Shown here one piece after another: positions 2,050-5,310 of a stretch of 5,360 nt of DNA. This DNA is from a virus. Lineage: Duplodnaviria > Heunggongvirae > Uroviricota > Caudoviricetes. Made by a program: the position numbers and the translations under genes. Numbering within the stretch: the first letter of the stretch is position 1; each line of letters begins with the position of its first letter. A model generated the notes under the pieces. The model was not told the origin of the DNA, did not search any database, and saw only the letters and a list, made by a program, of their open reading frames with translations. The stretch is from the IMG/VR virus record IMGVR_UViG_2706794677_000009; one strand, 5' to 3'.

Positions 2050-2423
2050 TGCGCCATGAGTTTATTTTACCTTATCCGCCGACGGTGAATACTTACTGGC
2101 GACGTCGTGACAACACATATTTTGTATCAAAAGCCGGTGAGCGTTATCGCCGGGATGTGGCGCTTATTGTCCGTCAGCAGCGACTGAAATTAAGCCTGTC
2201 CGGAAGACTGGCGATAAAGATTATTGCAGAGCCACCGGATAAGCGCCGTCGTGACCTGGACAATATCCTGAAAGCACCACTGGATGCACTGACACATGCG
2301 GGAGTGTTAATGGACGATGAGCAGTTTGATGAAATCAATATCGTTCGTGGTCAGCCAGTATCTGGTGGACGTCTGGGGGTGAAGATTTACCCCATAATGC
2401 ATGAAGAGCAGGTCAAAAAATGA
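2049..2423 (+). CDS. rusA: RusA-family Holliday junction resolvase (endodeoxyribonuclease RusA)
   Basis: 124 aa. N-terminal LPYPPTVNTYW and the RRRDLDN acidic motif with C-terminal GGRLGVKIY follow the RusA pattern (E. coli RusA has LPWPPSNNRYY ... RRRDLDN). Sits directly upstream of Q, as in lambdoid nin regions. Confidence 0.85.
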   Translation: MRHEFILPYPPTVNTYWRRRDNTYFVSKAGERYRRDVALIVRQQRLKLSLSGRLAIKIIAEPPDKRRRDLDNILKAPLDALTHAGVLMDDEQFDEINIVRGQPVSGGRLGVKIYPIMHEEQVKK

Positions 2424-3274
2424 AACTGGAAGATTTACCGAAATACTACTCCCCAAAATCCCCTTGCCTGACCGATGCATCGGCCTCAACGTCAAAAGAT
2501 GCGCTGAGTATCACTGATGTGATGGCCGCGCAGGGCATGACACAGAATCGGGCTGAGATGGGGTTTTCTGCGTTCCTGGGGAAAATGGGCATCAGTATGA
2601 ATGACAGGGCGCGGGCAACAGAATTACTGGCAGATTATGCACTCAGTCGGTGCGATCGTGTGGCGGCGTTGAGAAAACTTCCGGCAGAAATAAAACCGGT
2701 AGTGATGCGCATTATGGCTTCGTACGCTTTTGAGGATTATGCCCGCAGCGCAGCGAGTAAAAAGCAGTGCCCTTGTTGCTATGGGGAAAAATTTATTGAA
2801 AGCGTAGTTTTTACAAACAAGGTCCAGTATCCGGATGGTAAGCCGCCGGTATGGGCAAAGTGTACGAAAGGTGTGTATCCGTCTTACTGGGAAGAATGGA
2901 AAAAAGTCAGGGAGGTGGTAAAAGTTGCCTGTCCGGAGTGTGGCGGAAAGGGTGAGGTTTCCACCGCCTGTAAGGATTGCCGTGGGCGTGGTGTCGCCAT
3001 TCATCGTGAAGAGTCGGTAAAACGTGGTATGCCTGTTATCAGAGACTGCCAGCGTTGTGGTGGTCGTGGCTATGAAAGACTACCATCAACGGAGGCATTT
3101 AATGCTATATGCGAGGTGACAAACCAGATAACACGCGCGTCATGGGAAAAAACAGTTAAGAAATTCTATGATGCGCTGGTGACTCGGTTTGATATTGAAG
3201 AAGCATGGGCTGAGCGGCAGTTAAAAAAGGTAACTAGGTTGATTTTTCCGGAATCTGTGGTAAATTCGTCATAA
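2420..3274 (+). CDS. Q: Late-gene antitermination protein Q (phage 82 / Qin QuuQ-like family) with a cysteine-rich zinc-binding region
   Basis: 284 aa. The N-terminus (LEDLPKYYSPKSPCLTDASASTSKDALSITDVMAAQGM) resembles my recollection of Qin-prophage QuuQ. Three CxxCxGxG repeats lie at aa 171-178, 184-191 and 210-217. The position (after rusA, before the terminator and tRNAs) is canonical for Q. ATGA start/stop overlap with rusA. Confidence 0.75.
   Translation: MKLEDLPKYYSPKSPCLTDASASTSKDALSITDVMAAQGMTQNRAEMGFSAFLGKMGISMNDRARATELLADYALSRCDRVAALRKLPAEIKPVVMRIMASYAFEDYARSAASKKQCPCCYGEKFIESVVFTNKVQYPDGKPPVWAKCTKGVYPSYWEEWKKVREVVKVACPECGGKGEVSTACKDCRGRGVAIHREESVKRGMPVIRDCQRCGGRGYERLPSTEAFNAICEVTNQITRASWEKTVKKFYDALVTRFDIEEAWAERQLKKVTRLIFPESVVNSS
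3239..3266 (+). promoter_or_regulatory. Candidate late promoter pR' (sigma70-like: -35 TTGATT, 16-bp spacer, extended -10 TGgTAAATT), overlapping the last codons of Q
   Basis: TTGATT at 3239..3244 and TAAATT at 3261..3266 preceded by TG at 3258..3259. A terminator ~45 nt downstream fits the short pR'-tR' unit of lambdoid phages. Hexamer matches are imperfect. Confidence 0.4.
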
Positions 3275-3313
3275 CTATGGGCGTTTTATGCCTGACGTTA
3301 GAAGAGTTTCTAC

Positions 3314-3340
3314 AACCCGCCGCCGAGCGGGTTTTTTATT
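3314..3340 (+). terminator. Intrinsic terminator (candidate tR'): 6-7 bp GC stem ACCCGC/GCGGGT, 6-nt loop, then TTTTTTATT
   Basis: 3315..3320 pairs with 3327..3332, followed by the T-run 3332..3340. Confidence 0.6.
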
Positions 3341-3376: not shown

Positions 3377-3452
3377 GGCCCTTTAGCTCAGTGGTGAGAG
3401 CGAGCGACTCATAATCGCCAGGTCGCTGGTTCAAATCCAGCAAGGGCCACCA
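3377..3452 (+). tRNA. tRNA with anticodon CAU, most likely tRNA-Ile2 (lysidine type, decodes AUA); elongator tRNA-Met not excluded
   Basis: Manually folded 76-nt cloverleaf: acceptor GGCCCTT/AAGGGCC, D-arm GCTC-AGTGGTGA-GAGC, anticodon loop CTCATAA, T-arm GCTGG-TTCAAAT-CCAGC, discriminator A, encoded CCA. Close to my recollection of E. coli ileX and of the ileZ gene of Stx phages. Confidence 0.88.
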
Positions 3453-3552: not shown

Positions 3553-3629
3553 GCGTTGTTAGCTCAGCCGGACAGAGCAATTGCCTTCTAAGCAATCGGT
3601 CACTGGTTCGAATCCAGTACAGCGCGCCA
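3553..3629 (+). tRNA. tRNA-Arg, anticodon UCU (decodes AGA/AGG)
   Basis: Manually folded 77-nt cloverleaf: acceptor GCGTTGT/ACAGCGC (one G-U pair), D-arm GCTC...GAGC, anticodon stem ATTGC/GCAAT with loop CTTCTAA, T-arm ACTGG-TTCGAAT-CCAGT, discriminator G, encoded CCA. Confidence 0.9.
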
Positions 3630-3739
3630 TATTCATTCTTCCAGATTCCTTCCGGCAGAGCCTTATACTGAAATATACCTGGCTCAGGATATTGTTGAAA
3701 ATATTTTATGTTTGTCAAAAATAAAAGTTCTGTTAAGTA

Positions 3740-4093
3740 TTGATTGAGTGTTTGTTATACGGTCTAATGGTTTTTTCAGCATTAAATATTTATCATTCAT
3801 ATGGTGTGGGTAGAGTGAATATTGATGAGGCGTCGGGGTGTTTCATCCTTAGGCAGCGTATTGATATAGTCAATGCAGCACGAGCAAAGGCCTTCAGCCG
3901 TTTGACAGTTTTGTTCTGTACTCCTGATCGTCTTTCGGGAAGAGACGTTATTATTCTGAATAGTGATGCTATACAGAGGGTTTGCGATGAGTTCATGGTT
4001 GCTAATTCAGAATTATTTGCTCTTGTTCAGGAGTACAACAGAATAGCCAGGACCTGTGGTATGGATGAACTTCGGATTACTCATCTGGGGTAG
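3740..4093 (+). CDS. Hypothetical protein (orphan cargo gene, no family recognised); start codon uncertain (TTG 3740, ATG 3767, or an internal GTG)
   Basis: 354-nt open frame in AT-rich DNA directly downstream of the tRNAs. No convincing Shine-Dalgarno or own promoter found. Uses AGA and AUA codons. Stop TAG at 4091..4093. Confidence 0.45.
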   Translation: MIECLLYGLMVFSALNIYHSYGVGRVNIDEASGCFILRQRIDIVNAARAKAFSRLTVLFCTPDRLSGRDVIILNSDAIQRVCDEFMVANSELFALVQEYNRIARTCGMDELRITHLG

Positions 4094-4484
4094 ATACATA
4101 TCTGGATTATCACCTGTTACGGTAAAAAGTGATTGCTTACTGTTTTTGTGAATGGCATTGCAGCAGCCGGATAATGTCAGTGCTGGCTGACGGTGTGCTG
4201 GTGGCGGGTGTGGTGGTTGTTGCTTTCCCGTTGCTGAAAAAGAAAACGCCAGACTGTTAGCCGGGTATCAGTTAGCGGGAGAAATTTTTAAATACTTCAC
4301 AATTCAGGCGGTTGACTGTTGTCTGGTTTGCGGGGAGTTTGTTAAAAGAAACTGGCATGGTGAATCCCCCTGTGCGGAGGGGCAATCAGCGAGTAGGTAT
4401 ATGGGATAATCGCGGATTCAGGTGCTGGTACTGAATTCACCGGGAGGCACCCGGCACCATGCAATGGCACATAGCGCCACTCTC

Positions 4485-4520
4485 CAGCCCCTCTCCGGAG
4501 GGGCTGTTTATATTGATTTT
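4485..4520 (+). terminator. Strong intrinsic terminator: perfect 9-bp GC-rich stem CAGCCCCTC/GAGGGGCTG, 4-nt loop, then TTTATATTGATTTT
   Basis: 4485..4493 is the exact reverse complement of 4498..4506, followed by a T-rich tract on the plus strand only. It lies 21 bp from the stop of the convergent minus-strand gene. Confidence 0.65.
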
Positions 4521-4538
4521 GTCAGATGTGAGTAAACT

Positions 4539-4571
4539 CCTTATGGACTTTGTTGTTTTAGTCCATAAGGA
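4539..4571. repeat. Perfect 11-bp inverted repeat (TCCTTATGGAC ... GTCCATAAGGA) with a 11-nt T-rich spacer, spanning the stop codon of the minus-strand gene
   Basis: 4539..4549 is the exact reverse complement of 4561..4571. Confidence 0.8.
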
Positions 4572-4876
4572 CATATTTGCAGAGTGCAACGGTTATTAAA
4601 GCATTCATTCAATACGTTATCTGTATTTGTAGGGCATTCCTGGCTATTTTTGATTGAATTCCAGAATGTTTTATTGAATGGTACTACGTTGTAAATGGTT
4701 ACAGGTAGCACTTTGTTATTGAGCATGATGCCTGTGTGAGTCAGTGTAAATATACTTTCAGGAGGTAAGAAAGCATCCGATTGATACCAGATTATTAATT
4801 TTATTTTACTCCATATGACTGAAAAAGATATTCCGCATGATGGCTGGATAACTGTATCAATCACAATCCACTTCAT
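4541..4876 (-). CDS. Hypothetical 111-aa protein, Trp/aromatic-rich N-terminal part and C-terminal C-x11-C-x4-C-x4-C cluster; orphan cargo gene
   Basis: ATG at 4876 preceded by AAGGAAA about 6 nt upstream (good Shine-Dalgarno). Stop TAA at 4541..4543. AT-rich codon usage. Promoter-like hexamers lie upstream. No family recognised. Confidence 0.62.
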
Positions 4877-4916
4877 TTAGTTTCCTTGTTTATGCCTTGC
4901 TGGTGATGTTCTGAAA

Positions 4917-4943
4917 AGTATAAATGATATTTTTGAATGTAAA
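4917..4943 (-). promoter_or_regulatory. Candidate sigma70 promoter for the minus-strand gene (-35 TTTACA, 15-bp spacer, -10 TATACT)
   Basis: Minus strand reads TTTACA-ttcaaaaatatcatt-TATACT, about 40 nt upstream of the ATG at 4876. The spacer is shorter than optimal. Confidence 0.35.
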
Positions 4944-5136
4944 CCATAGAGCAGAATTATTTTTCTGATGTTGTTTATTGTTTATTTAAATGCAGGGTGG
5001 TTTATATCTCGTCTTGTAGTTTATCCATGCATATCTGCTTGATAATCAGGTTTTTATTTAAGGTATGGTTTTGTGTTTTTTCTGTATTACATGTCAGGTA
5101 TTTTAAAGAATTATTTTTCAGATGGTGGAAAGAACC

Positions 5137-5310
5137 ATGGCATTTAAACACTATGATGTTGTCAGGGCGGCGCCGCCGTCAGATCTTGCGGAAAAGCTGA
5201 CACATAAACTGAAAGAGGGCTGGCAGCCGTTTGGTAGTCCGGTGGCCATAACCCCTTATACCCTGAGGTGTACTGGCAATAGCGGACACTACCATTTGTT
5301 CTTTTTTTAA
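5137..5310 (+). CDS. Small hypothetical protein (57 aa from ATG 5137); resembles, from memory only, the small conserved prophage ORFs (DUF1737-like) that precede nanS-p esterase genes in lambdoid prophages
   Basis: ATG 5137 preceded by GGTGGAAAG (Shine-Dalgarno-like) and has E. coli-like codon usage. The track's 5122 start lacks a ribosome-binding site. Stop at 5308..5310. The family assignment is an unverified recollection. Confidence 0.5.
   Translation: MAFKHYDVVRAAPPSDLAEKLTHKLKEGWQPFGSPVAITPYTLRCTGNSGHYHLFFF

Follow-up and report, generated by a model that had tools for sequence, protein, structure and literature searches.

What is encoded between positions 4094 and 4540 of a 5,360-nucleotide stretch of tailed-phage DNA (Caudoviricetes; IMG/VR record IMGVR_UViG_2706794677_000009), the whole of which is called the window here? 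An earlier note, made from the letters of the window, had described this block as a single non-coding unit of about 450 bp, in which a regulatory RNA, a cis-acting element, a long structured 3' untranslated region (UTR) or the remnant of a decayed gene might be recognized. Our analysis shows that the block is composite. Its 3' part is almost certainly the gene of the prophage small RNA (sRNA) STnc100/EcOnc05, and its 5' third is a DUF3927/TciB-like open reading frame (ORF). The RNA element is already known: it belongs to a curated family and has the same sequence as a published sRNA that was detected by experiment.

When the block was scanned against all Rfam families, the sole strong match was to STnc100 (RF02076), at 4326–4515 on the plus strand, with 132.4 bits against a gathering score of 47 (E 5.8e-30) and with model positions 1–206 of 206 covered. 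No other Rfam family matched the sRNA core. A nucleotide search, which had been proposed as a check, showed that 4297–4505 is 100% identical to a locus in prophage Sp4 of E. coli O157:H7 Sakai. EcOnc05 is listed at this Sp4 locus with a peak in Hfq crosslinking and analysis of cDNA (CRAC) at Sakai 1179806–1179914, and its Northern band is ~222 nt (Tree et al. 2014, PMC4104026). The peak corresponds to window 4387–4495, and the Northern probe used for EcOnc05 (PMC4104026) is the exact reverse complement of window 4385–4419. The STnc_100 quantitative PCR primers of a 2025 outer-membrane-vesicle study (PMC12370729) also match exactly, at 4356–4375 and 4428–4447. In strain EDL933, 11 STnc100 copies are reported to be transcribed, one of them being Northern-positive. 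The parts of the block are as follows.

4094–4540: the flagged block
4129–4260, plus strand: DUF3927/TciB-like ORF, 43 aa, GTG start (Pfam PF13064, PHROG 1470, RefSeq WP_000562553.1)
4285–4301, plus strand: start of the conserved sRNA module, placed by the start of homology, with a candidate distal -10 TAAATA (4289–4294) and a predicted transcription start at ~4299–4302
4319–4348, plus strand: proximal sigma-70-type promoter elements from the family alignment (-35 TTGTCT 4319–4324, TG 4340–4341, -10 TAAAAG 4343–4348)
4355–4462, plus strand: structured core closed by helix P1, from the agreement of the minimum free energy fold with the consensus and from covariation
4355–4362 with 4455–4462, plus strand: helix P1
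4367–4370 with 4379–4382, plus strand: helix P2
4385–4390 (ATCAGC, just 3' of P2) with 4424–4429 (GCTGGT, in the P4 loop), plus strand: pseudoknot
4391–4413, plus strand: variable (P3) segment
4414–4421 (GGATTCAG) with 4431–4438 (CTGAATTC), plus strand: helix P4
4440–4444 with 4450–4454, plus strand: helix P5 (CCGGG/CCCGG)
4463–4484, plus strand: variable single-stranded linker, exchangeable, candidate target-pairing region (from homology breaks and linker exchange)
4485–4520, plus strand: intrinsic terminator from the terminator scan, with its stem at 4485–4506, followed by the U-rich tail TTTATATTGATTTT

The segment 4355–4520 folds unusually well (z = −2.66), and the minimum free energy fold of the window sequence equals the family consensus. 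Our own covariance model of the core, searched in 100 loci, recovered 135 copies, 99 of them distinct; all covariation counts given here are per sequence, not per evolutionary event. Across the 99 distinct homologues, the consensus pairing is formed in 93.9% of cells, compared with 82.8% in column shuffles (reached by 0 of 500) and 41–49% when the partners are slid. Both sides have changed in five of the eight pairs of P1 and in all eight of P4. Hardly any change is seen in P2 and P5; the search pattern itself fixed part of P2 but left P5 and the 3' strand of P1 free. At least 95% identity is found at 44 core positions (95 distinct copies). The core measures 103 to 143 nt, and its length shows no 3-nt periodicity (mod 3 counts 23, 32 and 40). 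Two inverted repeats had been pointed out in the block by the earlier note: CCGGG/CCCGG is indeed helix P5, but TGAATCC/GGATTCA is not a helix of the fold, in which GGATTCAG and CTGAATTC pair with each other.

The P4 loop pairs with the strand 3' of P2 as a covariation-supported pseudoknot. This pairing was first seen by eye and then tested. It occurs in more than 15 compensatory versions, for example CTGGTG/CACCAG, CCAGTC/GACTGG, CTAGGC/GTCTAG and AATGAC/GTCATT. For 56 distinct combinations of strand and loop, the mean is 6.34 bp against 3.64 ± 0.24 when permuted (maximum 4.52; 0 of 2000 reach the observed value). In 42 sequences, which were chosen by P4 length only, 87.3% of positions are paired, compared with 72.1% when shuffled (0 of 500) and 19–52% when slid, and four of the six pairs have changed on both sides. 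The covariation check that had been suggested for the block was thus carried out, and P1, P4 and the pseudoknot all show compensatory changes among ~100 distinct homologues. The pseudoknot is missing from the line that cmscan gives as consensus for the Rfam STnc100 model. It is not mentioned in the 2026 preprint that compares PasD with STnc100, and was not found in the literature searched. Another candidate pairing, between leader and linker (GGGGAGU, 4332–4338, with ACUCUCC, 4479–4485), is predicted by RNAfold and resembled by the outer 3-bp helix of the Rfam model. Permutation gave it no support, with 7.23 bp against 7.03 ± 0.16 when permuted (36 of 300 reach it). A variant of the core was seen at two loci (L068:4934–5041 and L129:3246–3353, both minus strand), where the pseudoknot strand forms a long local hairpin (GATACC...GGTATC) and P4 is cut to a few pairs; it may be a PasD-like branch of the family.

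Homology among the prophage copies begins at ~4285–4297, and frequent break points are 4463, where the core ends, and 4505, where the terminator stem ends. This makes the unit modular, with leader and core followed by linker and terminator, and the same leader and core are found with different linkers. At the start of the module, the alleles with the CACAATTCAGG leader (window, Sp4 and Sp5) carry the -10-like hexamers TAAATA, TAATCT, TATGTT and TAAATT. A start at ~4300 would give an RNA of ~215 nt, near the ~222-nt EcOnc05 band and the ~235/247-nt EcOnc27 species. As for the proximal promoter, TTG at 4319–4321 is kept in 83–98% of 126 distinct copies (IMG/VR and genomes), and distant members have a near-consensus TTGACA-N17-TAAATT at the same place, ending ~7 nt before P1. 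Transcription from this promoter is predicted to start at ~4355, the first base of P1, and to give an RNA of ~161 nt. The promoter scan did not list it, the -10 of the window allele lacking its final T. For the Sp17 allele, which has no CACAATTCAGG leader, ~165 nt are predicted from the proximal promoter; this allele, EcOnc06, gives a ~177-nt RNA (PMC4104026). The EcOnc27 CRAC peak starts ~40 nt 5' of P1. Which of the two starts serves the window allele is here a matter of inference from the sequence.

The strong terminator described in the earlier note was recovered. Its stem (4485–4506) has 9 bp, of which seven are G-C pairs, and a 4-nt loop, and it is the strongest of the four sites found in the terminator scan of the window (1.9 expected). 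In the tail after the stem, UUUAUAUUGAUUUU, only three U are uninterrupted. A terminator was recognized in 115 of the 126 family copies, and their stems include six or more sequences unrelated to each other. After the hairpin the minus strand reads GAGAGTGG and lacks a T-tract, and a bidirectional terminator was ruled out on this ground.

The statement that no meaningful reading frame survives in the block has to be revised for its 5' third. The ORF at 4129–4260 matches PF13064 with 95.6 bits (E 1.7e-27, gathering threshold 25) over profile positions 7–53 of 53. It also matches PHROG 1470, 'TciB-like', and the identical locus of E. coli 042 has a RefSeq coding sequence (CDS) for it, WP_000562553.1. 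No DUF3927 ORF lies 5' of the identical sRNA in Sakai Sp4, where the module comes right behind a terminator that adjoins argO; ORF and RNA gene are therefore independent morons, and the ORF is a moron gene separate from the sRNA and not part of the RNA. A literature search on the function of TciB/DUF3927 returned nothing relevant. The core SSRIMSVL(A/S)DGVLVAGV is common to this ORF and to its homologue in phage vB_EcoS-813R8 (L245:1460–1576), in which a 1-nt indel shifts the frame in the C-terminal part. A promoter, TTGTGA-N18-GATAAT at 4146–4175, had also been proposed for the block. The motif is present (9 of 12 matches), but promoter-like sites occur in the window at chance level (6, against 5.1 ± 2.4 expected in shuffled sequence). 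It lies inside the DUF3927 ORF, in a stretch that Sakai Sp4 lacks although it does produce the RNA, and it is not the sRNA promoter. The block is GC-richer than its flanks, as had been noticed (49.2% at 4094–4540 versus 39.0% at 3630–4093 and 32.0% at 4541–5121); the excess sits in 4326–4515 (55.3%) and in the ORF (50.8%). The segment 4094–4325 shows no unusual folding (z = +1.08). The proposal of a regulatory RNA holds for the 3' 190–220 nt, that is STnc100/EcOnc05, and fails for the 5' part, which is the small ORF.

Together, these results are best explained if the segment from ~4299 or ~4355 to ~4515 on the plus strand is a prophage sRNA gene of the STnc100 family, allele EcOnc05, whose product acts in trans in association with Hfq, and we consider this explanation highly probable. 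Lysogens produce an RNA of identical sequence, and this RNA can be crosslinked to Hfq (Tree et al. 2014, PMC4104026). In the lysogen, the sRNA, which ends at the strong intrinsic terminator (4485–4515), would be transcribed on its own from the sigma-70-type elements inside the conserved module. Associated with Hfq, it would then regulate host and island mRNAs by base pairing, as proposed by analogy with EcOnc27/sRNA103 and PasD1/2. Among these relatives, loss of Hfq lowers the stability of PasD and of the 247-nt EcOnc27 species, overexpression of sRNA103/EcOnc27 raises fimZ and espA transcripts, and PasD1/2 depend on Hfq and show numerous partners that share a motif in sequencing of ligated, interacting RNAs (RIL-seq). 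Pairing would most likely involve the variable single-stranded parts, namely the leader (4301–4354, if the distal start is used), P3 (4391–4413) and the linker (4463–4484), with the invariant pseudoknotted core as a putative stabilising or factor-binding scaffold. The terminator would in addition keep moron transcription of the lysogen out of the lysis cassette, and Q-modified polymerase would read through it. An Hfq-dependent trans-pairing mechanism as such is, in our judgement, fairly probable.

Several observations weigh against this explanation. The proximal promoter predicts ~161 nt and the reported band is ~222 nt, both start sites being predictions, and the proximal -10 of the window allele (TAAAAG) is without its canonical last T. 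The interruption of the U-tail (UUUAUAUU) makes it less than ideal for binding Hfq. Conservation is highest in the paired P2 and P5 and in the junctions, with no obvious single-stranded seed, which is unusual for base-pairing sRNAs. The literature holds no target shown by direct test for EcOnc05 or any other STnc100 member. Finally, the expression data come from other strains (Sakai and EDL933) than that of the window.

The conserved core, without a validated seed or target in the literature consulted, also suggests another view, the main rival, in which the core functions by binding a protein, a ligand or the transcription or translation machinery, or by catalysis, and association with Hfq is incidental. 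The multi-helix junction with its pseudoknot fits such a function, as do the 44 positions kept at ≥95% identity while P1, P4 and the pseudoknot were turned over by compensation, the spread of the family over prophages of Kosakonia, Trabulsiella and E. albertii and metagenomic phages, and its tandem arrays of 3–5 divergent copies. We nevertheless regard it as unlikely, given that Hfq crosslinking and Hfq-dependent stability are reported for members, that PasD has many RIL-seq partners with a common motif and that the core matched no other Rfam family. The bolder version, in which the ~110-nt STnc100 core would be a fold of riboswitch or ribozyme grade with a conserved partner and a role in phage late development, leader and linker being add-ons, appears equally doubtful. 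A riboswitch or cis-regulatory leader in the usual sense was rejected: there is no conserved downstream gene or expression platform, the neighbours vary (convergent iraM, AsxR, AgvB, EcOnc08, an esterase) and the terminators are unrelated between members. It is also rather improbable that the main role of the locus is in cis, as a transcriptional insulator of the late operon, in which a strong terminator, frequently back-to-back with a convergent one, would stop moron transcription of the lysogen ahead of the lysis genes, with the RNA as a by-product. The constant position between the moron genes and the DUF1737/holin region would suit an insulator, and so would the presence of a terminator in most copies (115/126) despite unrelated stems and the convergent arrangement with AsxR, AgvB or iraM. 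However, a terminator alone needs neither a 110-nt covarying pseudoknotted core nor its own conserved promoter, and the tandem arrays multiply the whole unit and not the terminator only. Insulation is moreover compatible with an sRNA role and does not exclude it.

The long structured 3' UTR of the earlier note would here be that of the DUF3927 ORF, or would give rise to an sRNA without its own promoter. The terminator scan found no terminator between the ORF stop (4260) and 4485, so that transcripts from upstream would also end at 4515, and DUF3927-type ORFs also precede the Sp17-type alleles. The identical Sp4 module, however, follows the argO tRNA and a terminator, with no DUF3927 ORF, and still gives the EcOnc05 band; promoter elements are conserved inside the module; and prophage homology begins at ~4285, not at the ORF. 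These facts make a 3' UTR very improbable. Scarcely credible, in turn, is a decayed protein-gene fragment or a small-protein gene, whether the pseudo-CDS at 4345–4470 on the minus strand or the ORF at 4459–4599 on the plus strand. RefSeq places an 'incomplete hypothetical protein' opposite the sRNA, on the minus strand, ribosome footprints are found on some EDL933 STnc100 copies, and GGGAGG-N11-ATG is present at 4442–4461. Yet the 42-aa minus-strand ORF has no Pfam match, the helices change by compensatory substitution, the core varies in length without 3-nt periodicity, and the ATG is lost in most members outside E. coli, which have CACCAC instead. The pseudogene called by the Prokaryotic Genome Annotation Pipeline, EC042_RS31150 (4345–4470, minus strand), overlaps the covarying RNA core and is very probably a false annotation that goes back to translated sRNA copies.

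The window sRNA was compared with the known members of the family and with their partners. It has the same helices, terminator and prophage late-region location as STnc100 (RF02076), and nothing essential differs; the window allele has a short P3 segment, with ~16 nt fewer than the model. Relative to the EcOnc05 locus of Sp4, 3 nt differ at 4294–4296 and 1 nt at 4506. In Sp4 the gene comes directly after ileZ-argN-argO and a terminator and converges with EcOnc08, whereas in the window two small ORFs (117 aa and DUF3927) precede it and its convergent neighbour is iraM. EcOnc27/sRNA103 (Sp5/933W, 3' of stx2B) is 76.5% identical to the window over 4297–4463, and EcOnc06 (Sp17) is 86.9% identical over 4337–4513, both in the same slot. 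These two paralogues are called STnc100 by Rfam and both bind Hfq, but their variable segments, linkers and terminators differ from those of the window allele, and they adjoin the convergent anti-sRNAs AsxR and AgvB, which are both absent from the window. The rise of fimZ and espA transcripts upon sRNA103 overexpression has no known counterpart for the window allele. PasD1 and PasD2 of enteropathogenic E. coli (EPEC) E2348/69 are also prophage-encoded, near Q, and Hfq-dependent. Structural homology to STnc100 and an origin in common with it have been reported for them (Pearl Mizrahi et al. 2021; Zhu, Shabalina, Storz 2026 preprint). The similarity escaped these authors' BLAST searches, and seeds and targets differ; the likeness of PasD1/2 to the window sRNA is taken from the published account. 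AgvB (RF02702) and AsxR (RF02703), which abut the STnc100 terminator on the opposite strand in the O157 'convergent sRNA dyad', are 51–60 nt long and unrelated to STnc100 in sequence, and iraM takes their position in the window. Neither was found in the window, by Rfam match at E ≤ 1 or by match to the conserved 3' part with up to 3 mismatches.

The window as a whole comes from a lambdoid prophage, of E. coli or a close relative, and represents its late-regulatory region. Its other features are as follows.

1–1680: debris of insertion sequences (IS) IS2 and IS21
2049–2423: RusA-family gene
2420–3274, plus strand: late antiterminator Q gene (Pfam Antiterm, 183.6 bits)
3314–3340, plus strand: tR'-like terminator (terminator scan)
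3377–3452, plus strand: tRNA with anticodon CAT (Met according to ARAGORN, tRNA-Ile in RefSeq)
3553–3629, plus strand: tRNA-Arg(TCT), also annotated by RefSeq at the 042 locus
3740–4093: 117-aa ORF with no assigned function (PHROG 2873)
4541–4876, minus strand: convergent iraM, anti-adapter protein of 111 aa (NCBIfam NF007393, 162 bits; RefSeq)
5122–5310: DUF1737 ORF

The sRNA gene occupies the late-region "moron" slot, in the order Q, two tRNAs, two small ORFs, sRNA, convergent iraM, DUF1737 and lysis genes. It thus lies 3' of Q and the tRNAs and 5' of DUF1737 and the lysis genes, as expected for STnc100. In E. coli 042 the flagged block is 100% identical and is followed downstream by holin, lysozyme and Rz-type lysis genes. 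The convergent slot held here by iraM is taken in O157 prophages by the anti-sRNAs AsxR or AgvB or by EcOnc08. The stop codon of iraM is 26 nt from the T-tract of the sRNA, and the two genes converge. With no T-tract behind the shared hairpin on the minus strand, transcription from iraM may continue antisense across the STnc100 gene, and this could couple the expression of iraM and the sRNA. In K-12, by annotation, iraM adjoins the e14/icdC junction.

Further upstream, a strong terminator (AACCCGCCGCCGAGCGGGTT followed by TTTTATT) was observed ~40–65 nt 3' of the Q stop codon (region 3274–3340). Phages of the Shiga toxin (Stx) type have pR'/tR' at this post-Q position, and StxS, an sRNA, is the short terminated transcript made there. 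A sub-threshold Rfam match to Trp_leader (25.7 bits, 3234–3340) spans this terminator and probably reflects mere terminator resemblance. It was set aside together with the weak matches to Plastid-ycf2 (antisense to a tRNA) and Yar_3, all being below gathering scores and attributable to chance or to tRNA mirror images. Compared with the three tRNA genes of Sakai Sp4 (ileZ-argN-argO), the window has two, a spacer of ~100 nt standing in the place of the missing argN (TCG) copy. At the 5' end, a ~155-bp IS2 end sequence is present in two copies (~1013–1167 and ~1517–1671), which enclose a 3' fragment of an IS21 istB-like ORF (1168–1457). This arrangement is a nested IS scar, and it breaks the region 5' of RusA where intact relatives have a DUF968 gene.

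The allele or its relatives were found by megablast in at least 2860 of 5426 complete E. coli genomes, and a more sensitive search with 4261–4540 gave 3409 positive E. coli genomes; a single genome has up to 12–13 such places. A scan of genome contigs with the pattern ATGGTGAATCC-N70-100-GGCACCAT was too loose and was discarded, its matches being mostly chance ones in unrelated phyla; the only true loci from it were in Trabulsiella, Shigella flexneri, E. albertii and Kosakonia. Prophages of Kosakonia, Trabulsiella and E. albertii and metagenomic phages mark the reach of the STnc100 family. Several phage contigs contain the tandem arrays of 3–5 divergent copies, all called STnc100 by Rfam. The contigs examined for context come from metagenomes and from phage isolates: in L174 the array follows RusA/DUF968 and precedes lysozyme/Rz, and in L129 it follows a DNA methylase and tRNAs and precedes a DUF1737-SASA esterase. 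The array loci are L129:2324–3353 (minus strand), L174:4377–5461 and 8377–8517, L144:1723–3286 and L134:370–990 (all plus strand). Each copy apparently has its own promoter and terminator, and the arrays are in the same late-region slot, often beside tRNA genes.

The analysis removes a false lead: no new element is present in the block, which consists of a prophage sRNA gene already in the catalogues together with a small ORF that is annotated. The family itself is far from marginal: STnc100 copies rank among the most abundant sRNA annotations in enterobacterial genomes, and one copy lies 75 nt 3' of stx2, where nearby single-nucleotide polymorphisms have been reported as predictors of the outcome of haemolytic uraemic syndrome. 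The interest that remains is in a widespread family without a validated function or target, which has a covarying pseudoknot and forms tandem arrays in other phages. For mutational work on this family, concrete handles are provided by the pseudoknot with its support from covariation, by the near-invariant core and by the boundaries set by promoter and terminator.

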